In this document: piece after piece, positions 1,933-57,607 of the stretch
Layout: each line of letters starts with the position of its first letter
How positions within the stretch are numbered: position 1 is the stretch's first letter
DNA from: Lytechinus pictus
Lineage: Eukaryota
Direction of reading: 5' to 3'
NCBI RefSeq assembly: GCF_037042905.1
Contig: NC_087250.1
Span: forward strand, 26,166,001-26,230,000
DNA: 64,000 nt
The notes under the pieces: generated by a model
What the model was told of the DNA's origin: nothing
The model's database searches: none
The model's input: only the letters and a program-made list of their open reading frames with translations
Position numbers and translations under genes: made by a program

Positions 1933-2215
1933 CAGGCGCGGATCCAGGGGGAGGGGGTCAGGGGGCACGTGCCTCCCCTTTTGAGAAGCAAAATTAATAT
2001 TTATAATGTAAAAAAGTGGTGTTCCTTTTGTTTTGCTTGTCAATTTTTTTCGGGTACGAAATATCCTCAATTTGTGGCTGAAGTTTTTTTGCCTGTATAA
2101 TTTTCTCGGGTACGAAATATCCTTAATTAGTGGTTGAAAAACTTTTTGCGTGTCAAATCATTCCTCCGAAAAATTTGCCTCCCCCAATTATTGGAAAATC
2201 CTGGATCCGCCCCTG
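1933..2215. mobile_element. hAT-like MITE (duplicate at 14190-14472)
   Basis: Termini CAGGCGCGGATCCAGG / CCTGGATCCGCCCCTG. Perfect 8-bp TSD CTGAAACG at 1925-1932 and 2216-2223. Confidence 0.85.
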
Positions 2216-2288
2216 CTGAAACGGAAGAGATACTATACAGGTTGTTGAGAACATGTACCAGTCTTGCGCAAAATTATTTGTACCTTAA

Positions 2289-2871
2289 AGGAGAATGAAA
2301 CCTTTGGAACACGATAGCTTGTTAGAAAGCAGAAAATCAAAGAAACAGATAAACAAAATTTTGAGAAAAATCAGACAAAAAATGAGAAAGTTATGAGCAT
2401 TTGAATATTGCGATCACTAATGCTATGGAGATCCTCACATTGGCAATGCGACATATATGTGTGATGTCACTTGTGAACAACTCTCCCCATTACTATAGTA
2501 TATATTTCACTTAAACTGCCTCTTTTATAGCATCTATCAGTAGATCATGTGTTCTTTCTATAGGAGTGCATGTAATACAGATTTCAAAGAATACATCATG
2601 GATAAAGAGTTTGTATCACCACAAGAAAAAGCAAAAAGAGACATTTTGTGTGTATATCATAGTCTATCAAAGGGAAAGTTGTTCACATGTGACATCACAC
2701 ATCCGTGTCGCATTGCCCATGTGAGGATCTCCATAGCATTAATGACTGCAATATTCAAATGCTCATAACTTTCTCATTATTTGTCCGATTTTTCTCAAAC
2801 TTTCTTTGTTCTTATTCTTTGATTTTTCTGTGTCGACAGAAGCCCACTTGTTCCGATGGTTTCATTCCCCT
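2289..2871. mobile_element. Kolobok-like MITE with ~190-bp imperfect TIRs (duplicate at 14546-15128)
   Basis: AGG...CCT termini and TTAA TSD at 2285-2288 and 2872-2875. The paralogous empty site GTACCTTAAGGGGCTTTCAC is present at ~42258-42277. Confidence 0.85.
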
Positions 2872-3148
2872 TTAAGGGGCTTTCACAATTGCTCGTGTGA
2901 TCGTTTGCGATCATTTGGTCACAATATATGTTGTACATTAAATCGCAACAGTTGTAAGAAGTCGTACCACCAAATGTGAAAGGGGCTTTATACGAACAGC
3001 TTTATAAAACACCCACCAAATCGATTTTGTTCTCTTTTATTATTGTTTCGCTCTTTTGTTACCGTTTCTCCAGTGGATGCCGGGACATTTATCGACACAA
3101 TGGTACCGTCTCTGTTGACACGCAGTAAAATATTATCAACGTAATATA

Positions 3149-5224: not shown

Positions 5225-5669
5225 TATAGAATAGTGTTTGATGACACGCAATGGAATATTATAAACATGATACACAGGCGAATTGTGTTAAGATATTATT
5301 TTTCATTCGGGGTGAATTCCTAACATATTTATCGAAAATTCATAAAGAAGTTTCAGTTTTCTCAAAATTTGAGAAAACTGAAGGGTGAAACTTTCCCCTC
5401 CATGACCACTCGCCTCCTTTATATAATTTCTTAGGATATTTATTTGCGTATGAACCGTGCATCATGAACTCTTTCGGTAAACATTTCTGTTTGATTTATT
5501 TATGTTACTCTTGTTCGGAATGAAATCATAATGAATATTCCACATCTGATTAATATTTCTTATTCAAGGAAAACATTTTATAACCACAATAAAGCGCTGT
5601 TTATAGTTTTTATACAACGTTATTTGCTATTTGTCTTGACGGTACACTTTAAAAATTCATGTCTAATTT

Positions 5670-5770
5670 ATTGAATAATATTGATAATAATATCAACAAT
5701 CATAATAATAATGATAAAATTAATAATAATGATGATGATAATAATAATAATAACAATAATAATTATAATA
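5670..5770. repeat. (AAT/GAT/AAC)n microsatellite (duplicate at ~17927-18027)
   Basis: Direct reading; source of the poly-N and poly-I ORF-track artefacts. Confidence 0.9.
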
Positions 5771-5789
5771 AAAGAAATGACATTGAGTT

Positions 5790-6620
5790 ATATAGCGTCA
5801 TCTATCCAGAAACAATCTATTTCGAGGCGCATTGTTATTATTGTTACTCCGGCTTTTAATAGCTTTAGGTGCCTTTCAGTGCTCAGTGCAATTTAAGGGG
5901 AATCCAACCCAAATAAAAATGTGTTTTTATAAGGAAAAAAAAATCAGACAAGTTGATAGGTGAAAGTTTGAACAAATTTGAACAAACAACAAGAAAGTTA
6001 TTAATTTTTCAAAGTTGTAACCATTGGTAATCACTATACCCATGGAGACTTCAAATTGGCCGCATATGGGATGGCATAGTAATGTAAGGCAAGGACTACT
6101 CTTCCATGTACTCCAATACATATTATGGCTAATATATAATTTTTCCGAAAATTTTTATTTCAAATTATAGTTTTCTTTCATGAGGACATATACTAATATA
6201 CTACCTGGATTATATTTAGATTACTGCCCCAGGGGAATGGGTACTTAGGAGAAAACCACAAGTCCCTGTACATGGACTATGGGAAAGTTGTCCTTGCCCC
6301 TTGTCATAATTTACTTACCCAGTTACCATTTTGAAATCTACATAGTATTAGTGATCTCAATTTTAAAGCAGCTATAACTTTCCTTTTGCTTGTCCGATTT
6401 CTTTCAAACTATCACCATTCTGTTTGATTTATTTTTCTCCTTCCCAACACAACATTTTATGGCCAAGGCTGGATTCCCCTTTAAGGAATCAATCCTGCCG
6501 GGTATACCATTTACCTCACCTGGGTCGAGTGCAGCACTGTGTGGATAAACTTCTTGCTGAAAGAAAACACGCCATGGCTATGGTTCGAACCCTTAGAGTC
6601 AGAACCACTAGACCACAATC
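5790..6620 (-). mobile_element. Decayed tRNA-derived SINE interrupted by a Kolobok-like MITE (related partial copies at ~36060-36235, ~39055-39228, ~42420-42505)
   Basis: Shared body CCATTTACCTCACCTGGGTCGAGTGCAGCAC. On the minus strand a B-box-like GGGTTCGAACC lies near 6582-6592. The AAT-rich tract at the left end fits a 3' tail. Confidence 0.6.
5897..6480. mobile_element. Kolobok-like MITE (duplicate at 18154-18737)
   Basis: TTAA at 5893-5896 and 6481-6484. Termini GGGGAATCCAACC / GGCTGGATTCCCCT. Confidence 0.8.
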
Positions 6621-6748
6621 CGCCTATATTGCATATTAGATTTATTTTTAAAAATCGAACTCTGTTGTTTGAACTGTTAAAGAAACTATTCTTAACCCCC
6701 CCCCCCCCCCGGGGGGGGCACTTCCATTCACGAGTTGATACCAAGCGC

Positions 6749-9700: not shown

Positions 9701-10497
9701 AGGCAATTTTATACAGTGACATGAAAGATTCTTTTCATTTTCTAAGTCTTTCCCTCATCTTATTTTATTTACTCGTCTTCCTCCTCTTCTTGTTACTCTA
9801 CTCTTTTCCATCTTTTTTTTTTCGCTCCGCCAATAGTTTGGGGGGGGGGGGGACGGGCCCCTCGGCCCCTCCCCTGGATCCGCCTATGGAAGAGATATTG
9901 TGTCCAGCACCCCCCCCCATTCTCTCCCCGCTCAAGTCCGGATTGAAACCAATGATAATAATATATGAACAAAAATCCAAATTCACAACTTCAATAGGGA
10001 GGGTGTCATTCCCCTTCTGCGTTACAATTTGTCAAGTGGCGGCGGCAGGGAGAACATTTTTTTTAAGCAGAAAGCTGTGATGATAGGGGAGAAATAAATA
10101 AATAAATAAAACATTAACGAATAATAAGAAGAAAAAAAACAACAAAACAATTTGTATAAGATGTTCATGCAATTGTATTATCGGAGCACATGACGGCGGA
10201 GCAATTATCGGCGGAGCAGATTTTGGCGGAGCAAATATCGGCGGAGCAATTGTCGTATAATCGGAGCAGATGTCGGCGGAGCAATTGTCGGCGGAGCAAA
10301 TATCGGCGGAGCAGATGTCGACGGAGCAAATATCGGCGGAGCAAGTGTCGACGGAGCAAATATCGGCGGAGCAAGTGTCGACGGAGCAACTGTCGGCGGA
10401 GCAACTGTCCGGAGCAATTGTCGGCGGAGCAGTTGTCGTATTTTGCGTAGCAATTGTCGGCGGAGCAGATGTCGGCGGAGCAATTGTCATGGAACCG
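6749..10497. mobile_element. Foldback-like TIR element with 15-bp subterminal tandem repeats; left arm truncated at the duplication junction
   Basis: 10180-10490 is a (GGCGGAGCAATTGTC)-like 15-mer array ending CATGGAACCG. 6746-6812 carries the same array reverse-complemented (CGCCAAAATCTGCTCCG...GCTCCGATAAT). Confidence 0.7.
7991..9888. mobile_element. Non-autonomous TIR element with internal ~120-bp degenerate repeats (GCGAGCGCGAAGCGCGAG motif)
   Basis: Termini CAGGGGCGGATCCAG / CTGGATCCGCCTATG, flanked by a duplicated GAAGAG at 7985-7990 and 9889-9894. Confidence 0.75.
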
Positions 10498-11413
10498 CAT
10501 AAGAAACGTGTGGATGTGAAAATATCACAAAAAGTTCGGACGGGGCTAAGTTAAGCCAACCAACATTGGGCAAGTTGAGCCATGGTAATTCTTATGGTAA
10601 TATATAGTAAAAAAAATAAAAAACATAAAAAGCCATTGATATGCAGGCAGAAAGGAGCAAATTCACATGACAGTTCTTTTACTTTTAGAAGATGTTAGTA
10701 TTTATAGAGAATTAGCAAGTGAAAAGACTTTAAATGAAAAATTGGCATCCTGGTTCTCCCGCATACATTTTGCACATAGTTTTTGTGGCTCAATTTACCC
10801 CAGACGGTGGCACAACTTACCCCACTTATGGGACAAGTTGAGCCATTTGACATCAGTTTTTTCAAAGGTCACAACGAATTTCAGCGTGGGGATAGAAATT
10901 TGTATATAGGTGAAAAATATTTCCCAAGAATCAAATTTAAAGGCAAGGTACTTATTTTTACAATATTACTAGTCATATCAATTCTAACATGCAAAATGTA
11001 AAAAGTGTCACAACTTACCCCGCCTTCCCCTACACTTGTTTTCTTCTCAAAAGTGGTTTCTGTACCCTTCGCCTTCGATGGACTATGACTCTGTGCAAGG
11101 TAGGTGTCAAATCAACATTAACGAGTTAGCAAATTACGAAGCTGGCATTTGAACTTTGGTAACATTGTTTGGAAACACCTTGTGTATTATATCACATTAT
11201 AGGAAATATATTTCCATAACTTTATGAATCATAATTTGCTTAGGACCTATGAGTTCACCATTCCTGGTGCTCATATTATCTGTTTAATGATATATATAAT
11301 CATGTTGTACTAAAAGTCCCGTTTTCAAGTCAATATAAACCAAACATATTTAATTGTTTATTGTTTTATGTAGTTACACATGCTTCTTTTTCATGACTAC
11401 TTAAAGTCATTGC

Positions 11414-14400
11414 CCCCCCCCCCCCCATTAAGGTCTAATTATAGAAAATTCACAGTCCGTGCTTACGTTCGTATTAGTCTCGTTAGTGGATTGGTGAGAT
11501 ATGTCCGCTTTTCATGAATTAAACAAACTGTCCTTAAAAACGTCCCTTTTCTGGTATTTATATCAGAAATTTCCCGATAGCGCTTCGCGTTCAAATTATT
11601 CGGTTCACGTATTCCTACAAACAAACCCTAGGGTGTTGTATTTTGTTTATGTTAATGTTATAATTGAATTAGTTTTACTTTGTTTTACTATATTAATATT
11701 AAAAGCGAATAAAGAACTATATACTATATGTGCTTAACTAAAATCATCTGTTATCATTATTATTAAAATGCCCTTTTCTATGTCTGAATTTCGCGCTCGG
11801 AATAGATTATTGAGATACGTATCACGTTCGTGATTACAATGACTGCAAAAGTGTTTCATGTGTTTAGGTGTAATTTCGCATATCAATTTCTTAAAAAGTC
11901 CCTATCGTGGGAGGGGGATATCCCCTCCCACCCCCCCCCCCCACCCTCATCGGTCGCTTTACTCCCTCGCCGAGACTCAGGCACTATTCATCCCCAAATC
12001 ATCACAAGAAATCGACACCTAAGGTAAAAAAAAAACACAGTGCTATCAATCCAGACCGATCAGGATTGGTTATCACGTTATTTGCAATGATATTCCGACG
12101 GTTTGTTTTATACGTTATTTACTATGACATATTTTGGTTTGTTGAAATTACCCTGTTAAAAGTATATTTGGAAAATAACATAAAAGAAATATGCCTATTA
12201 AAATATATTGCCGAAGGTTTGAGATAAATCAATCTGCGAGATACGTTATGAAGAAAAAAAAATCCCCCTATACGAGAAATCAAGGGCAGGCCACGTACTA
12301 GCAAAACATTTTGTGCAGATGTCCCAGAATAGACCAGTTCGTAGTTACGTATGGACAATTTTGGTCAAATGACCTTTCATTTCTTTCATTATGATAGGCA
12401 GATTTCAAAGCAAGATATTACGTAAGCTTGCCTTACCTAGCAGGATGAAGAAATTGAATAGACCAGGTGACTAGAATAGCACACTAATGAACACTTTATA
12501 AAGGTATTTGTTGCGTTCCTATTTTGAATGCACATCATAGCATGTTGCACAATGTACTTGGCAAACTGTGAAATACCAGTCGTTCGTGGACGCATTGTTG
12601 TTTTTTGTGGATGTAAATGAAAACCACAATTCAAAAGAATACATGAATAATCAAGACATCAAAGTTGGTGCTTATCTCATTAGATTTTAAACCACCATGT
12701 CACTTTAGTACAAATGACCTTCCTCTGATCATGCGTAGAATCTTTTGATCATGCGCAGAAAGGAAGTACGAACTGGCTTAATAAGCACACTTTAAGAGAT
12801 TTCATTCATTATCAGGAAAAAATATCCCCAAGCATGGGATCTTTCCTTTTTTGCAAGATTTGTTTTTGTCAGTACTAAGAGGAAATTAGACGAGCTACAT
12901 GTGTTGTAGGGATGACGTCATTAACTCTTTGCCCGCCACGTACACTATCCCCCCTGCGCCACATTAATTTTCGGGTGCCACATTCAGAGGGGGTTTGCGT
13001 GCATTGTCTTATTCAACTCGCAATAACTTTTTACTGGTTTGTCGTATTGAAAAAAATTGTGTAGCAAAGTTTTAGAGAAATGAATACTCTTGCCAATGGT
13101 ATCATTTTTGTTATGTATAAAATCATAGATTTTGAGAATTTTAACTTTACATTCTGTTTCCAATTTTTCGTTTAGGAGGGTATTTTATACCTCTTATATT
13201 CAATATTTCCTAATGAAGGTTAAATTTCTAAGTTAGTCCTTTGAAAAGATGTGTTCTTTAGCTTTCATTACATACCAAATCCATGTCTTTATGGTCATTA
13301 TGAGCTAAGCAGTTTAGGATTGAAATGGGGCATTCAAAAAGAGTAAACTGACAATGAACTAAACTCTTCTATTGAAATTGACCCTGGCTACTTCTCAATA
13401 GACTTCCCGTCCTGGGAGACTTCTGGTCTATTGATACTTTGATCCCCTTATTGTTATAGGGAGGTTTGTATCGTTCTTTTATTACAAGGAAAGCAGTGCA
13501 AGCTATTGAAAGCTCATCGAAATATATCCTAAAGCAGTTCAAAAAACTCAATTTTACGCGAAAAATCTCTATGTAAACAACGTCTGCGAAAGCTATAACA
13601 CGAAAGCTAGATTCGTAAACAATGCAATACACGCGTCGCTATTGTATGTGTGTGCACACAATTACAATTAAATGCGTTCCGTATGCATTGCGTGCAAACT
13701 GTGACTTGAGTCGTCGTTGGCAGTCCGCTGTATGTGCCGCGAGTCGTCCGTGGCGGGCAAAGAGTTAAAAGGGGTTTTTTTTTCAGAAAGACTCGGTATG
13801 ACATTTGTTTTTAAGCACAGTCCAAAACAATAGCCAAGTTATAGTAAAGTAGATCAAACATATTTAATGTAGGTTATCAAAGTCACGTTCTTTACTATTT
13901 TCACAAACAATATATTTCCAAAGCTACATACCGATAAGTTCAAGTATACACGCTCTTTCAACAATCTCTGCACACTGTGTGAATGAATGCGAATACAACT
14001 GAGTTAGACATGCAGTGTGTATTGAAACATATTGGGGATTTTCCACATCATGGATCAGTGCACAAATCAAACAAAATATCCAATGTTGGATATTGATACA
14101 AATTCCATCTTTCGACAACTACAAGTTTAATGTGGCTTACGGTATAGCAATGGCGTACAGTAATGATTGGTGTAGTAATAACTGAAACGCAGGCGCGGAT
14201 CCAGGGGGAGGGGGTCAGGGGGCACGTGCCTCCCCTTTTGAGAAGCAAAATTAATATTTATAATGTAAAAAAGTGGTGTTCCTTTTGTTTTGCTTGTCAA
14301 TTTTTTTCGGGTACGAAATATCCTCAATTTGTGGCTGAAGTTTTTTTGCCTGTATAATTTTCTCGGGTACGAAATATCCTTAATTAGTGGTTGAAAAACT

Positions 14401-17400
14401 TTTTGCGTGTCAAATCATTCCTCCGAAAAATTTGCCTCCCCCAATTATTGGAAAATCCTGGATCCGCCCCTGCTGAAACGGAAGAGATACTATACAGGTT
14501 GTTGAGAACATGTACCAGTCTTGCGCAAAATTATTTGTACCTTAAAGGAGAATGAAACCTTTGGAACACGATAGCTTGTTAGAAAGCAGAAAATCAAAGA
14601 AACAGATAAACAAAATTTTGAGAAAAATCAGACAAAAAATGAGAAAGTTATGAGCATTTGAATATTGCGATCACTAATGCTATGGAGATCCTCACATTGG
14701 CAATGCGACATATATGTGTGATGTCACTTGTGAACAACTCTCCCCATTACTATAGTATATATTTCACTTAAACTGCCTCTTTTATAGCATCTATCAGTAG
14801 ATCATGTGTTCTTTCTATAGGAGTGCATGTAATACAGATTTCAAAGAATACATCATGGATAAAGAGTTTGTATCACCACAAGAAAAAGCAAAAAGAGACA
14901 TTTTGTGTGTATATCATAGTCTATCAAAGGGAAAGTTGTTCACATGTGACATCACACATCCGTGTCGCATTGCCCATGTGAGGATCTCCATAGCATTAAT
15001 GACTGCAATATTCAAATGCTCATAACTTTCTCATTATTTGTCCGATTTTTCTCAAACTTTCTTTGTTCTTATTCTTTGATTTTTCTGTGTCGACAGAAGC
15101 CCACTTGTTCCGATGGTTTCATTCCCCTTTAAGGGGCTTTCACAATTGCTCGTGTGATCGTTTGCGATCATTTGGTCACAATATATGTTGTACATTAAAT
15201 CGCAACAGTTGTAAGAAGTCGTACCACCAAATGTGAAAGGGGCTTTATACGAACAGCTTTATAAAACACCCACCAAATCGATTTTGTTCTCTTTTATTAT
15301 TGTTTCGCTCTTTTGTTACCGTTTCTCCAGTGGATGCCGGGACATTTATCGACACAATGGTACCGTCTCTGTTGACACGCAGTAAAATATTATCAACGTA
15401 ATATACACCCCAAAAAAAGTAAGTCCCCCCTAAATCAGATTGCTGTTACTTTTGAACGGAGATTTTTTTAGATATGACATTTCGTAGGTGGTTTTCTACA
15501 CTCATTAAGCAACTCCTGGGGAAAAATGAGATTGATCGCTTGAGTCATGCATGATGAATTAAAGACTGAATTAAAGATGACCATTTTTGAAAGTCACAAG
15601 AGTCGTTTTTCAGATTGTGCAAATACAAAGTTGGGCAAAAGTTGTTTTTAGGTGAATTTTATGGTGTTTTGCTGTTTTACTATCCATCATTTAGCCACTC
15701 CACATGCACAATTTTGATATCGTATGTTCATGGTTGAGTGAGCACACTATCGCAGGGGCCGCGGAAGCGGGGTGGGGGCCCACTTATTTCCAAAAGCATG
15801 TACAAAAATGTAAAAATGACCATACGATTGTGATTTTTTGCATGGTCAGCCCCCCAATTTTGCCTCAGCCCCTCCCCCACACTTTGAAAACCGTTCCGCG
15901 GCCCCTGTATTGTGACGTATCATCATAGGGGTTTTGGTAGTATCCTCTACAACTTGTTAGGTCATATTAAAATTTGAAAATGTTGGTGGCTCCCCCGATT
16001 ATAGGCCCCTCCCCCATTTTTAAATTCTGGATCCACCACTGATTTGTCCATAAATTAAACTGATCATGAGAAATTGTTAGGAAAATAATACATTTATGCA
16101 GTAAAAAGAGTATTCATTCCTAAGTTTTCGAATGTGCTCGCTCAACCATAAAATTTTTTAAAGTTCTGAAAGTGTGTGGGCAAAGAAATGATGGATGATA
16201 AAAACAACAGCAATTAAGGTCACATTTGAAACCGAATTTGCCCCCAATATTCACCTTATTACCCTTTAAAATGAGTCTGTGACATTGAAAATACCCATTT
16301 TCCCACTTTGATGCGTGCTCACTCATCCGTGAATAAACAAATCGATTTCATTTTTGCACAGAATTCTGCCCATAGGTTGATAAACATTACTGCCGATTGA
16401 CATTGCTAAAGACAGCCTTGCAAAAAAGTTCCACCATATTAAATAAGGGGTTACTTATTCTTAAACATATGCACCCACAATGTACACAAGTCTATAAAAG
16501 AGGAAGTCAAAATTTAAACAAATATGAAATAAGGGGTTTGTTTCATGGACGGTTTTTGTTACTTCTGCCAACAGTTATTTCATGAAACTTCGCACATGGC
16601 TTCAGAGTAACACTATCCAAAAGGCGCGCACACCAAAATAACAATTCGGTACGGCACAGAGTGGGGCCAAGGCCTTGAACTTTCTTCTCATTTGCATAAT
16701 TTTCGAATATTGTGTGCTCACTAATGCATTAAACATCGGGATTTTCATAAAAATCAAATCAGATGAACCGTGCAAGGAGGTTTGTAACAGATATCCATAG
16801 TTACAAATCGCATTTTTTCCAATAACGTAAAAAAGAGCTAATCACATTCCACATGTTCATTCAAGCGTGAATGTTTAATCAAACGCCTTTGAATCATTGA
16901 AGCATTTTAATTGGTCATGAACATAACGAAAACGTTGATAAAAGATCAGTTTCAGTTACCAAAATGAACCAATACTTGCCTATGATATTTGAAAATCGTA
17001 TTTTTTTGTTTTCAATAAATGTTCATTGAACCGTGAAACGATCAATATTGTTGAAGATACTCTTCCCCAAAATAACTGTCATCATATTTTATCATTTTTA
17101 TTGATGAAAATGTGTAAAAATCCAATTATAGTAAATTTGGACTTGTGTTTATTCAACAGTGAAATTTAGCCAAAAAAATTGTATCGTCTTTTAGAAAATA
17201 CCTTTTACAAGCCTTCTGACTATTTTCATGATGGGAATGTGGAATCAGTTCCAATAAAATGGAATCAAAGTCATGAATTTTGGCTTGTGACTTTTGAAAA
17301 GTGACATTTTTGCCTTCTGACAGTGCTCACTGAAGCATGACGTAAAAATACGTCCATAACATTTACTCAGAGGATAGCTTATAAAATTATCTACACGCTC

Positions 17401-19009
17401 ATGTAAAAATATATCAAAAATTCGCATTGGTACGGATATTATTGATGTTTGTTTAAGGGGGGACTTACTTTTTTGTTTGTGTATAGAATAGTGTTTGATG
17501 ACACGCAATGGAATATTATAAACATGATACACAGGCGAATTGTGTTAAGATTTTATTTTTCATTCGGGGTGAATTCCTAACATATTTATCGAAAATTCAT
17601 AAAGAAGTTTCAGTTTTCTCAAAATTTGAGAAAACTGAAGGGTGAAACTTTCCCCTCCATGACCACTCGCCTCCTTTATATAATTTCTTAGGATATTTAT
17701 TTGCGTATGAACCGTGCATCATGAACTCTTTCGGTAAACATTTCTGTTTGATTTATTTATGTTACTCTTGTTCGGAATGAAATCATAATGAATATTCCAC
17801 ATCTGATTAATATTTCTTATTCAAGGAAAACATTTTATAACCACAATAAAGCGCTGTTTATAGTTTTTATACAACGTTATTTGCTATTTGTCTTGACGGT
17901 ACACTTTAAAAATTCATGTCTAATTTATTGAATAATATTGATAATAATATCAACAATCATAATAATAATGATAACATTAATAATAATGATGATGATAATA
18001 ATAATAATAACAATAATAATTATAATAAAAGAAATGACATTGAGTTATATAGCGTCATCTATCCAGAAACAATCTATTTCGAGGCGCATTGTTATTATTG
18101 TTACTCCGGCTTTTAATAGCTTTAGGTGCCTTTCAGTGCTCAGTGCAATTTAAGGGGAATCCAACCCAAATAAAAATGTGTTTTTATAAGGAAAAAAAAA
18201 TCAGACAAGTTGATAGGTGAAAGTTTGAACAAATTTGAACAAACAACAAGAAAGTTATTAATTTTTAAAAGTTGTAACCATTGGTAATCACTATACCCAT
18301 GGAGACTTCAAATTGGCCGCATATGGGATGGCATAGTAATGTAAGGCAAGGACTACTCTTCCATGTACTCCAATACATATTATGGCTAATATATCATTTT
18401 TCCGAAAATTTTTATTTCAAATTATAGTTTTCTTTCATGAGGACATATACTAATATACTACCTGGATTATATTTAGATTACTGCCCCATGGGAATGGGTA
18501 CTTAGGAGAAAACCACAAGTCCCTGTACATGGACTATGGGAAAGTTGTCCTTGCCCCTTGTCATAATTTACTTACCCAGTTACCATTTTGAAATCTACAT
18601 AGTATTAGTGATCTCAATTTTAAAGCAGCTATAACTTTCCTTTTGCTTGTCCGATTTCTTTCAAACTATCACCATTCTGTTTGATTTATTTTTCTCCTTC
18701 CCAACACAACATTTTATGGCCAAGGCTGGATTCCCCTTTAAGGAATCAATCCTGCCGGGTATACCATTTACCTCACCTGGGTCGAGTGCAGCACTGTGTG
18801 GATAAACTTCTTGCTGAAAGAAAACACGCCATGGCTATGGTTCGAACCCTTAGAGTCAGAACCACTAGACCACAATCCGCCTATATTGCATATTAGATTT
18901 ATTTTTAAAAATCGAACTCTGTTGTTTGAACTGTTAAAGAAACTATTCTTAACCCCCCCCCCCCCCCCCCGGGGGGGGGCACTTCCATTCACGAGTTGAT
19001 ACCAAGCGC
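11414..19009 (+). repeat. Recent tandem segmental duplication, copy 2 (visible matching part)
   Basis: Matches 1-6748 except about 7-8 substitutions spotted by eye, homopolymer length changes and one 844-bp insertion. Confidence 0.97.
12925..13764. mobile_element. 840-bp non-autonomous piggyBac-like element
   Basis: Perfect 16-bp TIR CTCTTTGCCCGCCACG. TTAA TSD at 12921-12924 and 13765-13768. Single TTAA empty site at 1508-1511 in the duplicate copy. Confidence 0.92.
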
Positions 19010-19739
19010 GACCATGAGATCTCAAAAAGCACCCTAAACGCGTATTTTCGATATTCTGAAAATGCACCCCTTAACAAGTATTGGCGTGTGAAATCCTACC
19101 CTTAAAGGACAAGTCCACCCAACCATTAGTTGATTTGAATAAATAGAGAAAAATACAACAAGCATAACACTGAAAATTTCATCAAAATCGGATATGAAAT
19201 AAGAAAGTTATGACATTTTAAAATTTTGCTTAATTTCACAAAATATATGTACATCCTGGTCGGTGTGCAAATGAGGAGACTGATGACGTCATCCACTCAC
19301 TATTTCTTTTGTATTTGATTATATGAAATATGAAATATTCTAATTTTCTCCTCATTGTCAATTGAAACAAATATTAATTCCTCCCTGAACATGTGGAATT
19401 AGCATTGTTTTCAGTGGCGGATCCAGGGGGGTGACACAGGGGGCGCGCCCCTCCCTCCCCCCCCCCCCCTCTAATATTTGAGCGGCGCCTTTGGCGCCGC
19501 TCAAAAAAAAACATAAAACATAAAACATAAAAGAAAAGGTGCTGCTTGAAAAAATAAAAATAAAGGAAAGAAAAGAAAAGGCGCCACTTAAAGAAATTAT
19601 ACACTGATATAATATTAGCAACAGTAAAGGAAAGACTATCCCCCAGCAAAGCACAATCACATCATCTTCCTTATCTTACCCTTTTCCCAACAACTTCGCC
19701 GGTTAAAGATGATCAGCAGTGCGCTGCCTGCATAACTGG

Positions 19740-20400
19740 AGCCAATCAGAATAATCAGCGCCACCTAAATTTAAATTGGGCCGATCAAGGATAATAAGCG
19801 CCACCTTAATCTAAATCGGCACCGGACAAGCATAATCGGCGCCATTTTGTAATAAATCGGCGCCGGTAAAGAAAAATCGACACTGCCTAAGTTCTTAACC
19901 GGCGCCGATCAAGGATAATCAGCGCAACCTAAATCTAAATCGGGGCCGGACAAGAATAATCAGCGCCATCTGGTTATAGATTTGCGCTTCCTGAGTCTTA
20001 ACCGGCGCCGATCAAGAATAATCAGCTCCACCTAAATCTAAATCGGCGCCAGACAAGAATAATCAGCACCACCTGGTTAAAAATCGGCGCCAGTCAAGAA
20101 TAATCGGCGCCTCCTGGTTCTAAATCGGCGCCAGTCGATAATAAATTGCCGCTGCCTGAATCTTACGTGACGTTGGTAAAAATAATTAGCACTACTTGTT
20201 CTAAATCGGCGCCGCGGTCAAGACAAATCGGCGCTGCCTTTGTCTTAACCGGCGCCACCTAAATTTAAAATCGGCACCGATCAAGAATATTCAGCGTCCC
20301 CTGGTTCCAATAAATAGGCGCCGGTAGAATAATGAAGAAGGGCCTATTCCCAACCAAATCTAGATCGGCGCCGGTCAAGAACAATAATCGGCACCTGGTT
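19740..20400 (+). repeat. Degenerate minisatellite (~20/41-bp units with AATCGGCGCC core)
   Basis: Recurrent AAGAATAATCAGCGCC / CTAAATCGGCGCC units. Confidence 0.8.
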
Positions 20401-30047: not shown

Positions 30048-31299
30048 CCAAAACCATATACAAAAAAAAAGTTTCGTTATAGTTTTGTAATATACGTATT
30101 GAAACTAAGTTACGGGGGCTTGCCTCCAATACAAGCTTCGCTTTTCTTGGCAAGCCCCTCCGTTCTGTTTTATATAGTTATTATAGTCAAAGTTACTTTA
30201 ATTTGCATTAGTTCTCATTGTTTATACCTTATTTCGATTGATGTTGTACTTTAAATTTGACTATGTATTGTTTGATTTTGTTGTGCTTTGTGAACGGAAA
30301 ATGAATAAACCTAATCTAAATCTACATTGATGTATATTGTCTGTTATAATGATATATGTTTAAGTGGACTTCAGGGAATGGTCGTACGCAGCAAGGGGAA
30401 GGGGGATGGGAAATTCCCGATCAGTTGTTGTGAAAACACATTTTGTTCCTTAACATTTCATGAAAACTATGAAAAATGTGCAAATGTGAGAAGTGCACCA
30501 AATACTTTTATTACACTTAAAAAAAATAGAAATAATCGCCCCATTGAGCAGCTCGGTCCATTTACTCTATCGTTTTTATTTATTTTTTTTTTTTCAAAAA
30601 ATGTTCGAGTCTTGCCCCCCCCCCCCCCGGAAATATTATATGCTTGTGGTCATGCAAAATGGCATGACTGGAAATCCTACATTTTGAAAAGAGCATTTGA
30701 CAGGGTCAGACTTTACACCTTTTTTAACATTTTCTTTTATGGCGCCGGTGAATTGCAAACATATGTGCGCCGCTCGGCATTGCACCCCCCCCCCCCCTTC
30801 GCCAAAAGCTGGATCCGCTTATGGTTTTAATACCATGGTTCAGTCAAGTTGGTCCTTATTGTCAAATCTGTAAAAAGTAAAATATTGTATAATTCAAACA
30901 ATAAAAAAAAAAAAATAGTGAGTCATGGACATCATCGACTGTCTCATTTGCTTGTCACTGAGATGTGCATATCACTGTTTTGTGAAAAATAAGCGAAACT
31001 TTAAAATGTCATAATTTTCTTATTTTACATCCGATTTTGATGAAATTTTTAGTGTTTTGCTAGTTGGATTTATCTCTATTTATTCAAATCATCATTTTTC
31101 TGGGGTGGACTTGACCTTTAACAAGTATTGGAAACAAAACGATACTATTGGCAAGTACAGTATTCCCTGAATTGAACCCCTAAACAAGTACAGCGATATT
31201 TCAAAGTTATGTCACGGACGTCGGTCGTCGGTTTTCGCTTTACCTACATCATTGGGTTTAGTACAGCCCAACTCGCGCAAATCATACTCTAAACACGTA

Positions 31300-46600: not shown

Positions 46601-48136
46601 GTGTAACATTGAGAGAGATGAACCATGTGTGAAATTGAAAAAATCAGAAGTTCTAACACACATCAATGACAAACTAACCCACTTGTCTGAGAAGGAGAGG
46701 AGGGATGTGAAAGAGCTGTTGAATGAGTATCCGCAGTTATTTGCAGATATCCCATCTCGTACTGATGTTGTTGAACATGATGTTGATGTGGGAGATACCG
46801 CCCCAATCAAGCAGGCACCTTATCGTGTTAATCCAGTAAAGATGAAGAATTTTGAAAAAGAAATAGAGTACATGCTGCAGAATGGCATCATCGAGCCAAG
46901 TAGCAGCGCATGGTCGTCACCATGCATCTTAGTTCCGAATCCGGATAAGTCGTATCGTTTCTGTACCGACTACAGAAAAGTCCATTCGAGTACAAAGATC
47001 GATTCTTTCCCGATACCGCGCGTAGATGACTGTATTGACCGTATAGGCAAGGCGAAGTATGTGAGCGAGTACAAAGACCGATTCTTTCCCGATACCGCGC
47101 GTAGATGACTGTATTGACCGTATAGGCAAGGCGAAGTATGTGAGCAAATTTGATCTGCTTAAAGGCTATTGGCAGATTCCGTTGACTAAGAGAGCGCAAG
47201 AAATCTCTGCATTTGCTACACCCCAAGGCCTATTCCATTACACTGTGATGCCATTCGGTATGAAATACGCGCCGGCTACATTCCAAAGACTTGTGAATAG
47301 TCTTGTCTCTGGTCTTGAAGGTTGTGAAGCTTACATAGATGACTTGCTTGTGTATAGTGAAGATTGGGAAGTTCATGTACAAAGAATCAGAGATTTGTTC
47401 AGGAGATTGTCTGATGCCAAATTGACAGTCAACTTGGCAAAGAGTGAGTTTGGAGGTGCTCCTGTTAGTTTCTTGTGTCACGTTGTTGGTTCAGGTCATG
47501 TTCGACCACTCTCAGCGAAGGTAGAAGCTATTCTGGCGTTCCCGACTCCAACCAACCGGAAGGAACTGATGAGGTTTCTTGGCATGGCAGGCTACTACAG
47601 ACGATTCTGCCATAACTTCTCTGATGTCGTCGCCCCGCTGACCAATCTACTACGCAAGGAGGTGAAGTTCATCTCGTCGAGCGACTGTCAGAGTGCTTTT
47701 GACCAAGTGAAAGCACTCCCTATCTACCAATCCTGTACTGGTGGCTCCAGATTTTAGTCAGCCATTCTCTCTGATGGTTGACGCTAGTGATGTGGGTGCC
47801 GGAGCTGTTCTTACGCAGAAAGATGAACAGGGAACAGACAGGCCATTATCGTTCTTCTCAAGGAAGTTTTCGAGCAGTCAGAGAAATTATTCCACTGTGG
47901 AGAAGGAAACTTTGGCATTAATCTTTGCACTGCAACACTTCGAAGTCTATGTGAGTGGATCTCACCATTCAGTGGACATATGGACAGATCATACTCCTTT
48001 GACGTTTCTAAGTAAGATGAAAAACTAAAATCAAAGACTTACAATGTGGAGTCTACTGCTCCAAGAGTACAACTTGAACATTAGACATCTACCGGGAAAA
48101 GACAACACTATTGCAGACACATTGTCGCGAGTGTAA
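43653..48136 (+). pseudogene. gag-pol: SCAN-like/capsid, CCHC knuckle, protease, integrase, RT, RNase H (disrupted)
   Basis: LRAYELVPEAY..FR; CYACHKVGHFKAKC; LRDTGASQ; integrase DQGSNF..SAYHSESQGALER and GPY; RT YRFCTDYRKV, FDLLKGYWQ, YIDD; RNase H DASDVGAGAVL, NYSTVEKE. Multiple stops and frameshifts. Confidence 0.93.
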
Positions 48137-50383: not shown

Positions 50384-50950
50384 TCTATGAATATCTTATT
50401 CGATCATTTACAACTTAAAGTTCAAGTCCACCCCAGCAAAATGTTGATTTGAATAAATAGAGAAAAATCAAACTAGCATAACACTGAAAATTTCATCAAA
50501 ATCGGATGTAAAATAAGAAAGTTATGGCATTATAAAGTTTCGCATATTTTTCACAAAACAGTGATATGTACAACTCAGTGACATGCAAATGAGTCAGTCG
50601 ATGAGGTTCATCACTCACTATTTCTTTTGTTTTGTATTGTTTGAATTATACAATATTTCATTTTTTACAGATTTGACAATAGGGACCGACTTTACTGAAT
50701 CATATATTATTTTATCTCGTAACTTCTCGTTACGGGATTCTGTGAGATACGAGCTACGCATGCGCGAAATCAGTGAGCCTACGTTCATGCATCGGCTGAC
50801 CACAGGCAGCCATTTTGATCAGTAAAATTTCGTTTTTCTTAGAAAGTTCCATACTCTACAGGAGGTACGTGTAACTTTTTTATGTTTCTTATAATTATCA
50901 CTATTTTCTGAGCCAAAAGATAATTTTCTTGTGTTACGTTTTAGCCTGTT

Positions 50951-52594
50951 ATGGCTGATTGTAATGACAAGGGCCCCCCTGAAGGCTCGTCGATTAAGTC
51001 AGCTAACGGTGACGTGTTTTCACCCGAGTCCATCCGCACGGCGGTATTGGCCTCTAACGCTGCGAATAAGAAGGATAAGGCTCAGAAACCAAGCACGGCT
51101 GGTACTAGTGATGTGAATTTTGCCAGCACGGCTGGTGAAGTTCAGGGGCTAGAAAACTTTGTGATACCTAAATTAACAAAAACTAGATCGGGTTTGAGTA
51201 GTTCCGGTAATAATAAGATTGATTCTCAGACCCAGTCCCACATGTACGACATGAGCAATCAAGCCCAACAAGAGGCTAAGGCAGGGCCTGCTAAGCCAAA
51301 ACGAGGGAAAAGCAAGACAAATAAAGACCCCAAATCAAGTGCTATTGGTGGTAAATCATGCAAGTCGAGTGGTGTTTCCCCTCCTGCAGCTACAGGAACC
51401 TTGGCCCCGGGCAATTCTGTGAATGAAAGTAATGAAAAGAGGTTTCAAAGTCTAGAAAGGGCACTTGAGAAACAGAATGCTATGTTAGAGAAGCTCTGTA
51501 ACAACATATCACATACTAGTAGTAGTAGCACGATTGAGAGTCAGGATGTAAATGTTAATGCCCAGGGGCATGAGGGGGCACAAAGTCAAGTTTCAGATCA
51601 GTATATGGAGGGAATGGACCCCGAGGAAGGGAGTTTTGTACCAGATTATGAGTATCCTTATGACTATGGCGAAGATGGATATATTTTCTCCCTCTCATCT
51701 GCTCAAGCTGGTGCTGAGCAGGTAGACCCTGCCCCTACTATTAGTCCCAGTCACAGTGTAGTTGAAGATGAAGTAGTCATGACAACAGGGCATGATGGGG
51801 ACTCTGTTGCTACCCCTATGGTGGCAAAGGGTTTTGCAGCCCGTTTTCAAGCTCAAGCCCCTATGGGACCAGTTGTGAATAAAGAACTAGCAGATAGTCT
51901 GAACATTATGCTGTCAGAGCGCATGGGCCTGGAAAATATGGGTGTACTCATGGACAAGTATGTTCCACCCAAGAATGTGCCAAACCTGGTAGTACCCAAG
52001 GTTAACCCCTTAATCTGGGATAATATCCCGGCAAAAACAAAATCCAAAGATTTGAGGCTTCAGAAACTCCAAAAGCCCTTAATCAAAGGAATGATTGCTG
52101 TAACAGAGCTTATGAAGGATAAGACTACCCCAGAACAGGAAGAGGCAATTGCACTACTGGCACATGCTAACAATGAAATAAACATGTTCCGAAGGGAGTC
52201 CATTAAGCCAGACCTCAATCCAAAATTCCAACCACTCTGTCGATCCGACGTGAAGGTAACAAAACACCTTTTTGGTGAAGACCTGGGAAAAGTTGTGAAA
52301 GATATGACAGAACAACAAAAGGCAGTGTCTGTTACCAGGCTAGGTTTCCACAAAGTCAAGGATGAAAATCAAGGTCAGAGGTTTGCTCCATATCCAGGCA
52401 ACTTCACTAGGCCAGCCTACAGAGGGAGGGGCCGTGGTAATCAGAACTCTCCCTTCACACCCTCTTTTTTAGGCATGCAGACCAGAGGGCATGCATTCCA
52501 CCTGCGAGGCAGGGGGAGAGGAGTAGTCATGAGAGGCCAGAAGAGAATGAGAGGACTCAAGGCACCAGCCACACAGTCCAGGCCCCCTTACTAG
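50951..52594 (+). CDS. DIRS Gag-like ORF1 (547 aa)
   Basis: Intact ATG-to-stop ORF. PKNVPNLVVPKVNPLIW..KDLRLQKLQ..RRESIKP..HLFGEDL and an RG-rich C-terminus are typical of DIRS ORF1. Confidence 0.88.
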   Translation: MADCNDKGPPEGSSIKSANGDVFSPESIRTAVLASNAANKKDKAQKPSTAGTSDVNFASTAGEVQGLENFVIPKLTKTRSGLSSSGNNKIDSQTQSHMYDMSNQAQQEAKAGPAKPKRGKSKTNKDPKSSAIGGKSCKSSGVSPPAATGTLAPGNSVNESNEKRFQSLERALEKQNAMLEKLCNNISHTSSSSTIESQDVNVNAQGHEGAQSQVSDQYMEGMDPEEGSFVPDYEYPYDYGEDGYIFSLSSAQAGAEQVDPAPTISPSHSVVEDEVVMTTGHDGDSVATPMVAKGFAARFQAQAPMGPVVNKELADSLNIMLSERMGLENMGVLMDKYVPPKNVPNLVVPKVNPLIWDNIPAKTKSKDLRLQKLQKPLIKGMIAVTELMKDKTTPEQEEAIALLAHANNEINMFRRESIKPDLNPKFQPLCRSDVKVTKHLFGEDLGKVVKDMTEQQKAVSVTRLGFHKVKDENQGQRFAPYPGNFTRPAYRGRGRGNQNSPFTPSFLGMQTRGHAFHLRGRGRGVVMRGQKRMRGLKAPATQSRPPY

Positions 52595-54708
52595 AACCCA
52601 TTTCGAACAAGACAGATGATGAGGTAAGCAATGAACATGCATCGAGTAGCACTCTGAATTGCAACCATTTCCAGGGGGGCCAAGTAAGCTTACATTTTGG
52701 CCAATGGGAAAGTTTAACTTCTGATAGAAATATTTTGAACATTATCAAAGGGTATAAATTGGAGTTCATAGGAGCGCCACCCATTCAGATATACATACCC
52801 CATCCTTACAAACTGACTCCTGTTGAAATTTTGGCTGTATAAACAGAGATACAAACCCTTTTGAATAAAGAGGTAATTGAAAAATGTGACCACATACCTG
52901 GTGAATTCATTTCCAATATTTTCATGCGGGAGAAAAAGGATGGAAAATGGAGAATGATTCTGAACTTGTCCCAATTGAATGATCATCTAGATTTCCACCA
53001 TTTTAAAATGGATACCTTTGAAACTGCAGTGCAACTTTTAACCAAGAATTGTTATATGGCATCACTTGACTTAAAGGATGCATACTTCTCTATCCTAATA
53101 GATGCCAGGTACAGAAAATTATTGCGGTTTCAATGGAAAGGGAAACTGTTTCAGTTCAGAGCGCTACCCAATGGGCTCTCACCTGGGCCTAGGATTTTTA
53201 CAAAAGTGCTCAAGGTGCCTCTATCTGTGCTCAGGAGCAGGGGGCATGTTATTGTATCCTACATTGATGACACACTCATAATAGCAGAATCAAGAGAGCA
53301 GGTGAAGCGTGCAGTGAATGACACAATAGAAATGTTGTCAAAATTGGGGTTTGTTATTCACCCCCAAAAATCTAAGTTTGAACCAAGTCAGCAAATCAGT
53401 TTCTTAGGGTTTGACATAAACTCAAATACCTTGACTGTTACACCAACAAATGGGAAAGCAGCTGAGATTAAGGCATTTGCTCAAAAGTTGATGAGAAAAA
53501 GAAAGATCACCATAAGACAACTGGCTTGTTTTATAGGGAAGGTTGTAGCAATCCTCCCTGCTTGTGAGCAAGGAAAGATGCACTATAGAGCACTTGAAAG
53601 AGACAAAATCTTTAACCTGAAAGTACATAAAGGCAATTATGATGCTCAATTGACATTAACCAACCCATCAAAAGAAGAATTGATCTGGTGGGTGAGAAAC
53701 ATTGAATCAGCTACTCGACATTTGGGTACAAGGAAAATAGATGTTGAGTTATGTAGTGATGCTAGTGGTGCAGGCTGGGGTGCCACAGATGGCAATACTC
53801 AATGTGGAGGTAGATGGAAAATGTCAGAATCCCTTGCAAGTGGCAACAACATAAATTACCTGGAGTTACTTGCAGCTTTCTTTGCATTGAAGGCTTTTTG
53901 CAAGGATAAATCTAACATCCATGTTTTAATGAGACTAGATAATACCACTGCAGTGAGCTACATTAATGAAATGGGCGGTATCAAGTCAGTTGAGTGTGAT
54001 AAGCTTGCCCATCTCCTGTGGCAGTGGTGTATAGTGAGAGATATTTGGGTCACTGCAGCCCATTTGCCAGGCGTAGATAATGTAATTGCAGATAAAAGAT
54101 CCAGAATCTTTAGAGATGAAACTGAGTGGATGTTAAATCCCATAATTTTTAAGGAATTGTGTAAACTGATGGGTAATCCTAAAATTGATCTCTTTGCATC
54201 TAGATTGAATACCCAGCTCCCCAATTATGTGTCATGGCAACCAGACCCTGGGGCACAAGCCATTGATGCCTTCACCTTGGACTGGGGAGGTCTAGAATTA
54301 TATGCATTCCCCCCATTCTGTATAATCAATACATGTCTTCAGAAAATTGTGGCAGACAAAGCTGAAGGGATTTTGATTGTCCCAAAATGGGTCTCCCAAC
54401 CATGGTTCCCTAGATTATTACAATTGTTAGTTGATACACCCATTGTTCTGCCACAGAGTGAGCATACCCTAATGCAAATGGAAACGGGGAAAATACACCC
54501 CCTGTGTGATAAACTGTTTTTGCTCGCTTGCAGATTATCTTGGAATCGCTCAAAGCAAGAGGCATTCCAGAAGGAGCTCGCTCAGTCATCTTGGCTTCAT
54601 GGCGACAGTCTACAAGGAAGCAGTACATGTCCTACATCAGGCGATGGATTCAGTTTTGTAATAGGAGATCGACTAATCCGCTGCAGACACATGTCTGTGA
54701 GATTTTAG
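52441..54708 (+). CDS. DIRS ORF2: RT + RNase H + DNA N6-adenine methyltransferase-like domain; one in-frame TAA at 52840-52842
   Basis: GQWESLTSD..IIKGYKLEF upstream of the stop; WRMILNL, LDLKDAYF, YIDD, SDASGAGWG, INYLEL, DNTTAV, DLFASRLN, YAFPPF downstream. No ATG in 52441-52839. Confidence 0.9.
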
Positions 54709-55505
54709 ACTTTCTTACAAACCTAATGCATAATGGCGTGGGATATAGTGGCATTAATACTGCAAAATGTGCTATTGGAAGCTTTACTCTGGTGCAAGGA
54801 GGGAAATCAATAAAGGATGATCAGATAATATCGAGGTTTATGAAGGGAATTTTCAACCTGAAACCACCGAGGCCTCGTTATTCAGACATCTGGGATGTTG
54901 GCAAGGTGTTAGACTACATTCGCTCCCTCCCAATTAATTCTGACATTTCCCTGCATGACTTAACCTTGAAACTTTGCTTGCTAATACTCCTGATATCAGC
55001 ACAGAGAATCCAAACACTTCATCTTTTGAGAATTGACATGCTAGACTTGCAGAAAGATCGGGCAAACTTTGTGATAACAGAATTGTTGAAGCAGAGTCGA
55101 CCAGGCAACAGTGGGGCGACTATTTGTTTACTGGAGTACCCTCATGACAAACGACTATGTGTTGTAGAAACTCTGAAGCAATATTTGTCAAAGACAGAAT
55201 CACTACGTAGAGGAGAAAAGCGGCTCTTCGTCAGTTACAAAAAACCTCATTGTGGTGTATCAAAGGACACAATAGCTCGCTGGGCTAAAGAAGGATTGTC
55301 CCGGTCAGGAATTGACACTACAAAATTCAAGCCTCATTCTACGCGGGCAGCCTCAACGTCTGCAGCTGAAGCTAGGCACGTCCCCGTTTGTGAGATTATG
55401 TCGAAGGCTGGATGGTCATCGGAGAACACTTTTCGTACTTTCTATCACAAGCCAGTAGAGAACACACTTGTAGATACTTTCCAAAAAGCAGTGTTAGAAG
55501 CCTGA
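54528..55505 (+). CDS. DIRS tyrosine recombinase (overlaps the 3' end of ORF2)
   Basis: Catalytic R-H-R-Y pattern: SAQR, HSTR, AGW..TFRTFY. The ORF is open but its conserved-looking N-terminus lacks an ATG. Confidence 0.92.
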   Translation: MQIILESLKARGIPEGARSVILASWRQSTRKQYMSYIRRWIQFCNRRSTNPLQTHVCEILDFLTNLMHNGVGYSGINTAKCAIGSFTLVQGGKSIKDDQIISRFMKGIFNLKPPRPRYSDIWDVGKVLDYIRSLPINSDISLHDLTLKLCLLILLISAQRIQTLHLLRIDMLDLQKDRANFVITELLKQSRPGNSGATICLLEYPHDKRLCVVETLKQYLSKTESLRRGEKRLFVSYKKPHCGVSKDTIARWAKEGLSRSGIDTTKFKPHSTRAASTSAAEARHVPVCEIMSKAGWSSENTFRTFYHKPVENTLVDTFQKAVLEA

Positions 55506-57607
55506 TGATTTATTGGATATTTTGATTCATCAAGGATTATTTTAGGACATGTGAGAAGACTTGAGGCTCGGAGGCCAAGCCTTAGTAACTTCAGTTTTGC
55601 GTTTCTAATTATGACATAAGGATCAGGACAATGGAACAGTAAAATGTACTCTTGATAATGCAGAGAGGCATTAGTTAATGAACTCCAACAAGCTTGGTAT
55701 GGACTGACCCAATTTTTATAGGGTTACTGATGTTTTTAATTTTACAACATAATGCGATAATGTTCACAAGTTGTGATAATGTTCATAAGTTCTTGTAATG
55801 AAAAATAAATTTACAGGACATTTGAGGCATTCATCAGAAATCATACAGTGGATGTGTATGTTTATGGTTCTCCTAGTGAACTCAGAGTGGCTTTCAATAT
55901 CTCACAGAATCCCGTAACGAGAAGTTACGAGATAAAATGTATAGATTAAACGAGAACTTACCTGAGTTTGAAGTTTGATCTTCATTTTATGAAGTAACGG
56001 AGAGTCTAGGGATTATGTGCCCTACCCTCCCCCCTTTGCTTCAAAGCTAAGATTACAGTCTTTACTATATTGATTGAGTTGTAGGTAAGTCACTGTTTAA
56101 TCATAAGTTTCACTCTGGTTCCACTAGGGTTTTCAATACTGATTTCGCGCATGCGTAGCTCGTATCTCACATAATCCCTAGACTCTCCGTTACTTCATAA
56201 AATGAAGATCAAACTTCAAACTCAGGTAAGTTCTCGTTTAATCTATACATTAAACGATGCTAATATCACATGTTCAGGGAGGAATTAATCACTGTTTCAT
56301 TTGACAATGAGGAGATAGTTAGAATATTTGATATAATGAAATACAAAAGAAATAGTGAGTGGATGACGTCATCACTCCCCTCATTTGCATACCGACCAGG
56401 ATGTGCATATAACTGTTTTCTGAAATTAAGCGAAACTTTAAAGTGTTATTACTTTCTTATTTTACATCCGATTTTGATGAAATTTTCAGTGCTGTGTTTG
56501 TTGGATTTTCCTATTTTTATTCAAATCAATTTTGTTGGGGTAAACTTGTCCTTTAAAACATATACATCGCAACCTCTAACCCTCCCTCTCTCTCTATCTT
56601 TAGCCTTAGAATTAATCGTTACATTTCATTTCAAATATAGATTGCATAAGGCTTCTGATATTAACTGATTTTATGTCCAAAACCACAACTTCATCAAGTG
56701 CTTCCATGTGATTGTAATGTAGACTTGAAAGAGCGCCATCTTTTGAGATAGAATGGAATAGCGTACGAAAGGGATTTTCCCCCAATAGATGATAGCCGAC
56801 TTCAGATCACTGCCACTTTATGGAGGCCAAAAATACTGGGGCTTCTAATGTAGAAGAAAATCAATTTCAATTTCAATAAGCCAAGTGAGTTGCTCAGTAT
56901 GTCTATGCATATATAATATTTTGTTAAATATACTTGATGCCCCCTTCCCCCGAGAGAAAGTACCATGAAAACAGAGACAGCGTCTATACCATATTTAGGA
57001 ACCTCCAGACATTACAAGCTCAGCTTTTTATGTAGGTTATTTTACATATCTCACTTTCATTAAATGCAATTGTCATAATCTTCTGTATTCTGTATTATAA
57101 TTATGTATTTCTTGTGTTATTTTATTTTGATTTATTATTCTGTAGAAGCATTGAACATAAATTCAATATGACAGTGTTGTAGTTCTTCAAAAAAATGGAA
57201 GTAGCATTGCATAATGGTCACATTTAATATAATTTAGTATAATGTAATCGTACTACATTTCCTGGTTATACAAAAGTAAGAAGCGTTTGGATCATTCTCT
57301 TCCTCTTTCTCTCTTTCTCACCTTTTTTCCCCTTTCCTTTTGTCTATCTCTTAAAGTCAATCGTTCCTGGCAAGCCCCTCCATTTTGTTTCCTTTTACTT
57401 AATTTCGACGAAGCCAGTTCTATCTACGTAGTTCAAATTCACCCTTTCTTAAATTTTGTTATGAATTACTAAGAATGACATGGTTTGTGATGTATTTAAC
57501 TTTGTAATGTAATGCTACTTTGTTTCCTAAGAAAGGAAAATACCAATACAAATTCAATTACAAATTCATCTCCCCCCCCCCTCCCCCATCTCTCTATCAT
57601 TCCTTAG

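Follow-up and report, generated by a model that had tools for sequence, protein, structure and literature searches.

The stretch of Lytechinus pictus DNA analysed here (64,000 nucleotides, hereafter the window) carries a 5.54 kb DIRS1-like retrotransposon at 50709..56248, delimited by an empty-site joint and by its terminal repeats. It lies on the forward strand, as do all the features of the element described below. At the empty site, 50708 is joined directly to 56249 with three shared letters (115 RNA reads in run X23 and 115 in run X24), the pattern expected of DIRS1-like elements, which insert without target-site duplication. The inverted terminal repeats typical of the group are also present: the left one (50709..50774) is 82% complementary to 56138-56203, and the right one, with its extension, spans 56138..56251. 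An internal complementary region (ICR, 55898..56019) consists of two halves that overlap by 3 bp at 55936-55938; 55898-55938 is 100% complementary to 50709-50749, and 55936-56019 is 100% complementary to 56168-56251. There is no long direct repeat in the element, only inverted repeats and the ICR, so the split direct repeats of Ngaro and PAT elements are missing. The two ICR halves with their 3 bp overlap, the ATT terminus and the length of ~5.5 kb are shared with the DIRS1-like elements described in the available text of PMC3266345 and PMC9210276, where the group has a Gag-like ORF1, an ORF2 bearing reverse transcriptase (RT), an overlapping tyrosine recombinase (YR) ORF and inverted terminal repeats. 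Structurally, nothing sets the window element apart from ordinary DIRS1-like retrotransposons.

The insertion target was a high-copy repeat, now split into flanks at 50392-50708 and 56249-56529, whose coverage by RNA reads is very high (~3,500 at 50600-50791) and which has related copies at 19118-19410 and 30835-31144. Elsewhere, the window holds a near-identical segmental duplication (~1-6650 and 11415-18905, spacing 11.4-12.3 kb), an ORF at 47711-48028 that by eye resembles a Gypsy-type RNase H fragment, and tandem arrays of a 15-nt unit (10160-10504) and a ~41-nt unit (19748-20273).

Three coding frames follow one another in the element, ORF1, ORF2 and YR, each in the -1 frame relative to the preceding one. 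ORF1 (50951..52594, stop TAG at 52592-52594) encodes a protein of 547 aa with an Arg/Gly-rich tail. It has no Pfam match and is Gag-like. Its closest Gag counterpart comes from Lytechinus variegatus, with 96% identity over 68% of the ORF1 length, and homologous ORFs occupy the same place upstream of pol in 51 of the best 80 of 274 related loci (52 counting the window). ORF2, or pol (52441..54708), matches RVT_1 (PF00078, E=8.6e-26) and is broken by an in-frame TAA at 52840-52842, in the RT, which makes a full Pol protein impossible from this copy. The stop is private to the window copy among the listed reads and contigs (X23, X1 and X2 differ, and X24 has no coverage there), and it leaves gag and the predicted Gag-YR protein unaffected. 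At E<=0.01, the window protein has no Pfam match to RNase H (RH) or methyltransferase (MT); its aligned homologues carry PF17917 and PF05869, and it retains DLFAS and FPPF motifs, which we take to be RH and MT markers. The YR frame (54513-55505) carries phage-integrase domains, Phage_int_SAM_4 at residues 24-84 (PF13495, E=4.6e-6) and Phage_integrase at residues 139-306 (PF00589, E=1.1e-8), and is thus a tyrosine recombinase and not a DDE integrase.

How the second and third frames are translated is not obvious from their starts. The 5' segment of ORF2 (52465..52623, 53 aa) is open and has no ATG. The YR frame is closed upstream by TGA TAA at 54507-54512, and its predicted exon (54534..55505, 323 aa) has its first ATG at 54627, codon 32. 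The original prediction proposed that one -1 frameshift plus an in-frame intron could explain how the AUG-less YR is made, and the sequence confirms the placements on which it was built: the YR-frame TAA at 54510-54512, the ATG at 54627, a donor at an ORF2 codon boundary (52623/52624) and an acceptor ending at 54533 on a YR codon boundary. The donor, GAG/GTAAGC (the slash marking the junction; 5' splice site 52624..52629), is in phase 0, 29 nt past the gag stop. The acceptor, TTTTTGCTCGCTTGCAG, comprises a pyrimidine tract and a TTGCAG 3' splice site (54514..54533) that overlap the pol codons L-F-L-L-A-C-R, and the YR codons that follow it read IILESLKARG. Together they would bound an alternative intron of 1910 nt (52624..54533) containing RT, RH and most of the MT-like region, a prediction that draws on the conservation described below.

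Scored as originally proposed, with an approximate weight matrix, the donor reaches 6.8 bits, the best of the coding region and tied second of the 291 GT in the element, and the acceptor reaches 5.6 bits, fourth of 428 AG. The candidate branch point, TGAT at 54507, is weak. Such scores in a single copy could be due to chance; the comparison of families shows otherwise. A second candidate intron, of 80 nt, lies just 5' of the gag ATG (50865..50944, GAG/GTACGT to TTTTAG). It is weak (donor 5.1 bits, acceptor -0.5 bits) and has no clear conservation among the relatives. Five X24 molecules start at 50800, near this candidate.

To collect relatives, metagenomes were scanned with an alignment of 50 YR sequences, and the best 80 of 274 matches were kept. 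These 80 loci fall into 45 families plus the window, with YR identities of 39-55%. Counting the window, the acceptor could be assessed in 45 rows and the donor in 27. L077, which begins inside YR, and L057 and L053, which have no RT anchor, were excluded, and L075 and one other split row were left out of the trees, which were quick trees. Five further loci (L081-L085) were held out; these DIRS elements come from assemblies of bacterial MAGs (Sedimenticola, Anaerolineae, Nitrospirales) and are most probably host contamination. The viral contigs searched yielded no relatives, and none of the 80 loci (best 80 of 274) is a processed gag-YR form. L067 had been flagged as one and was rejected in favor of a permuted or tandem arrangement. 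L034 holds two copies of one DIRS family inverted tail-to-tail on the same contig (1683-9790).

Of the highest-scoring donors between the gag stop and the RT, one per family, 20 of 27 fall in pol phase 0, 6 in phase 1 and 1 in phase 2; since phase-2 donors would place stops in pol, the fair contrast is 20 versus 6. Donors of at least 4 bits occur in 17/27 families, compared with 0.9% of 324 control windows within RT/RH. The position of the donor varies from 48 to 120 nt before the RT anchor, as do the residues it encodes (VS, VG, VR, VN and VC), and therefore the donor is not a protein motif. Relative to the gag stop its range is narrow: where a usable donor exists (20 families), it lies 11-41 nt downstream in 19. 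A good donor is missing from L060 and L031, and that of L068 is weak. In the gag/RT spacer of L001, L041, L064 and L032, two tandem donors separated by 4 nt (GTRGGTRAG) provide both phase 0 and phase 1. Among the held-out loci the best donor is in phase 0 in 4/4, but reaches at least 4 bits in just 1/4.

Upstream of the donor, a predicted -1 slippery site in the gag frame, T TTT TTA (52465..52471), is followed in the window copy by weak hairpins (z = -1.7 for the fold 3' of the site). A gag-frame heptamer is present in 22 of 27 families (15 TTTTTTA, 6 AAAAAAC and 1 TTTTTTG), and in 21 of these 22 the pol frame is open from the heptamer to the RT. The 60 nt 3' of the heptamer fold better than shuffled sequence, with a mean z of -1.13 versus +0.31 upstream (22 families). 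The structure is modest, and an in-frame X XXY YYZ heptamer followed by structure constitutes a predicted frameshift signal. In the held-out loci, the slippery site is in frame in 3/4.

The same few nucleotides could be read as part of a purely splicing-based scheme, in which TTTTTTAG at 52472 acts as a 3' splice site, or a different donor (in the leader or within pol) is joined to the YR acceptor, and no frameshift is needed. The acceptor at 52472 does score higher (6.3 bits) than that at 54533, and in the protein models P0047, P0126, P0128 and P0129 pol sequence seems to run into the region of the upstream acceptor. However, the heptamer is A AAA AAC in 6/22 families and TTTTTTG in one, none of them with an AG, and because AAAAAAC contains no AG it favors a frameshift over an acceptor. 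The eight best donors of the element include none internal to gag, and such splicing would still leave both ORF2 and YR without an AUG. We regard this wiring as very improbable.

At the acceptor, the best site is in YR phase 0 in 36/45 families, at one of two main positions. In most families, it lies at the Ser codon of the pol PPF-Ser motif, 71-72 codons before the YR start. This codon is AGY in 21 families and TCN in 3, against a background of 24% AGY, a count to be read with the caveats that it comes from a regular expression that missed two further AGY families (L013 and L024) and that an AGY serine can persist through codon inertia. In the upstream-type families, with AG at PPF-Ser, the YR frame is stop-free for the following 69 codons in 19 of 21 (a hand-picked set that excludes L079 and L049, with out-of-phase copies, and L069 and L007, with a variant motif), compared with 4/150 control windows. 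This open stretch begins with an ATG in only 3 of the 21.

The window belongs to a second type, comprising 12 families that have Cys at the PPF-Ser position and YAG at the acceptor position of the window. Here the YR frame contains a mean of 4.8 stops over the 69-codon stretch, and TGC AGR is present in 12/12. Before the window-position acceptor, the pyrimidine fraction is 0.73 in these 12 families versus 0.55 in the other 33, the third position is T in 28/48 versus 25/132, and branch-like motifs are commoner than in the other 33; an upstream AG is found in 2/12 versus 25/33. The closing stop of the YR frame is the TAG of the acceptor itself in 11/45 families. In a quick tree the window-type families group together as a single clade (SH-aLRT 98; 11 of 44 rows), which means that the switch of acceptor was one event and that the family counts are not independent. 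On this sequence evidence the window-type acceptor is a single switch maintained over long divergence, and not twelve. Exceptions include L076, L054, L060, L026 and L070, in which the upstream AG has been lost and other in-frame acceptors are present, and L068 and L028, which have no good acceptor. In the held-out loci an in-phase AG stands at PPF-Ser in 4/5, and the best acceptor is in phase 0 in 3/5. The placement predicted for the acceptor is thus kept in one clade but is not fixed across the group, where most families use a site ~71-72 codons upstream. The expectation that donor, acceptor and phase would be conserved in other DIRS families holds at the nucleotide level, more weakly in the five held-out loci.

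Could these motifs simply follow from pol coding sequence and common descent? The acceptors do overlap conserved pol motifs (PPF-S and L-A-C-R), the window type is one clade, and no junction read occurs among the listed joints, at a donor depth below 1x. Against this, 1000 synonymous recodings produce a mean of 2.6 and at most 8 donors of at least 4 bits among the 27 families, where 17 are observed, and neither the third-position bias nor the stop-free YR frame past the upstream-type acceptor fits coincidence. Chance seems hardly credible to us, and it and the all-splicing scheme fit worse than a frameshift combined with alternative splicing.

A further reading is that YR is made free from its own AUG, either from an RNA with an internal start or, on spliced RNA, through reinitiation past the gag stop. 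That YR is AUG-less, as first claimed, is correct for the window copy but not universally: P0003, 62% identical, starts with MQ two codons before the YR start. An ATG occurs somewhere in the open YR stretch in 31/45 families, and L026, L070 and L035 have an acceptor-like TAG/ATG ~201-207 nt before the YR start. L068, a sister family with its weak donor and no good acceptor, keeps an ATG (at -69) without the AG, a possible shift to free YR. Yet 8 of the 12 window-type families lack such an ATG, ATG positions are scattered and often derive from pol xC codons, and in the window a start at 54627 would shorten YR by 31 residues and truncate its match to Phage_int_SAM_4. Moreover, translation starting after the junction needs no phase conservation at either site. 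Some lineages may make YR in this way; as the explanation of the pattern as a whole we consider it unlikely.

Alternatively, ribosomes could shift -1 a second time where pol and YR overlap, which would yield a Gag-Pol-YR protein. YR is in the -1 frame relative to pol in all intact families inspected, several gene models join pol to YR, and a frameshift has been proposed for the YR of Ngaro elements (Poulter and Butler 2015, as quoted in the available text of PMC13003380), in which YR, likewise in the -1 frame and with no obvious start, begins within the end of pol. Nevertheless, a strong in-frame heptamer is found in the usable overlap in 0/45 families (any heptamer in 7/45), compared with 22/27 at the gag/pol boundary; in place of the slippery site that the Ngaro proposal would call for, the overlap has splice signals. 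A second frameshift would also leave the donor and the pyrimidine tract unexplained, and its chances appear slim.

Protein models bear on the join directly. Two Diadema antillarum RefSeq models (XP_071483612.1 and XP_071502116.1) read from Gag through an ORF2-type segment to the YR start, and so, at the level of gene models, show the predicted join. The segment (FFR...E) is 54 aa long, versus 53 in the window; its +1 reading accommodates the RFxPY and FLG motifs of the gag tail, and among 852 control segments only that protein passed. The join occurs in only 2 of 28 longer YR proteins, and many others fuse pol to YR. It was not seen in the protein models of the family from the host itself. A Gag profile search found 12 proteins, of which P0173 (Gag with a truncated YR) was left out of the counts. 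In 120 near-length homologues, N-terminal extensions resemble, by eye, the overlapping MT-region frame, and many near-length YR homologues begin at M near -2 or -67. In Antedon mediterranea RefSeq, P0107 and P0160 carry a 24-aa peptide ending in EE before the YR start and P0161 differs, which suggests, from models, an intron ending at the YR start. Very long single ORFs that end in YR without a pol match were also seen (P0142, P0145 and P0146, 1376-1412 aa, which the Gag profile does not match; likewise P0131, P0134, P0137-P0139 and P0141, ~980-1010 aa). In these lineages, the YR frame may overlap all of pol.

The RNA data comprise raw runs X23 and X24 (about a quarter of each) and contig sets X1 and X2, 4 of 24 runs. 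Calling a joint took three reads, and the flanking repeat filled the joint table; the 52623 to 54534 junction is absent among the 15 of 149 joints listed, with a depth around the donor (52520-52711) of 0.7x and 0.2x. X1 and X2 contigs cross the donor unspliced (52195-53045), as genomic RNA or DNA would. Depth in the element is 0-15x and unstranded, and coverage at 54248-54439 equals that of the YR exon, so that these data leave exon and intron unseparated.

The reading that we prefer, and consider probable, is that one -1 frameshift and alternative splicing together yield Gag, Gag-Pol and Gag-YR, as the original prediction had it. Conservation of the sites and their phase, the heptamer in 22/27 families and the two RefSeq joins all support it. 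Ribosomes would slip -1 at T TTT TTA and, on spliced RNA, read from Gag through the short ORF2 segment, common to Gag-Pol and Gag-YR, into the recombinase; the in-phase donor and acceptor likely remove the 1.9-kb intron with RT, RH and most of MT. The products of unspliced RNA, which would also be the genome, would be Gag (547 aa) and, where the copy is intact, Gag-Pol (~1250 aa); those of spliced RNA would be Gag and Gag-YR (~881 aa). A stop codon within ~50 nt of a junction escapes nonsense-mediated decay, and with the donor 11-41 nt past the gag stop in 19/20 families the spliced RNA would stay within this zone. Retroviral enzymes reach particles through fusion to Gag, and by analogy the Gag part may carry the recombinase into particles. 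What the sequences show directly is where the sites lie, that they are in phase and conserved, and which frames stay open; splicing, frameshifting and packaging in vivo we infer.

Retroviruses make their gag-pol -1 frameshift at U UUU UUA and A AAA AAC. The same heptamers, an unspliced genome alongside a spliced subgenomic RNA, and enzymes fused to Gag would be common to both systems. Retroviral env, however, is expressed by a splice that removes gag-pol and uses the start of env itself, whereas the donor of the window element lies past the frameshift and the gag stop, so that one shift would serve two alternative enzymes. In plant Ty1/Copia elements, a conserved alternative splice sets the protein ratio (available text of PMC5580714), as proposed here; the Copia splice gives a Gag-only RNA, and that of the window element would instead swap the enzyme behind Gag.

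Compared with published DIRS1-like elements, the window element and its relatives add a conserved slippery site and a splice pair. The available text of PMC3266345 and PMC9210276 has no mention of 'splic' or 'intron' and gives no route for the translation of ORF2 or YR. An endogenous splice to the YR ORF is likewise not described in the available text of PMC7192593, PMC9341512, PMC3266345, PMC4157794, PMC3783388 and PMC9940879, nor in that of bioRxiv 10.64898/2026.05.21.726589, PMC13003380, PMC9210276, PMC6681497, PMC5633606 and PMC4495291. We found no report of a Gag-YR protein in the open-access literature searched. The frameshift-then-splice strategy is a well-supported and apparently undescribed variant among DIRS elements, its novelty provisional.

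We lean, with somewhat less assurance, towards the extension of this strategy to animal DIRS1-like elements in general: one frameshift, followed by a splice switch that places either RT/RH/MT or YR behind a Gag leader. The 3' splice site, lodged in MT codons, would have moved in evolution and set the extent of the YR/pol overlap, and the donor would be pinned just past the gag stop against nonsense-mediated decay. If so, the variable ORF overlaps of the DIRS1-like group would be explained by acceptor position, the real protein would be Gag-YR and not the free YR ORF, and copies with a broken pol, such as that in the window, could still supply Gag and recombinase. The plan predicts exact junctions, and it offers an answer both to how the overlapping, often start-less ORFs of DIRS elements are translated and to how the recombinase gains access to the cDNA. 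The DIRS order as a whole may share this arrangement of a frameshift followed by a splice.
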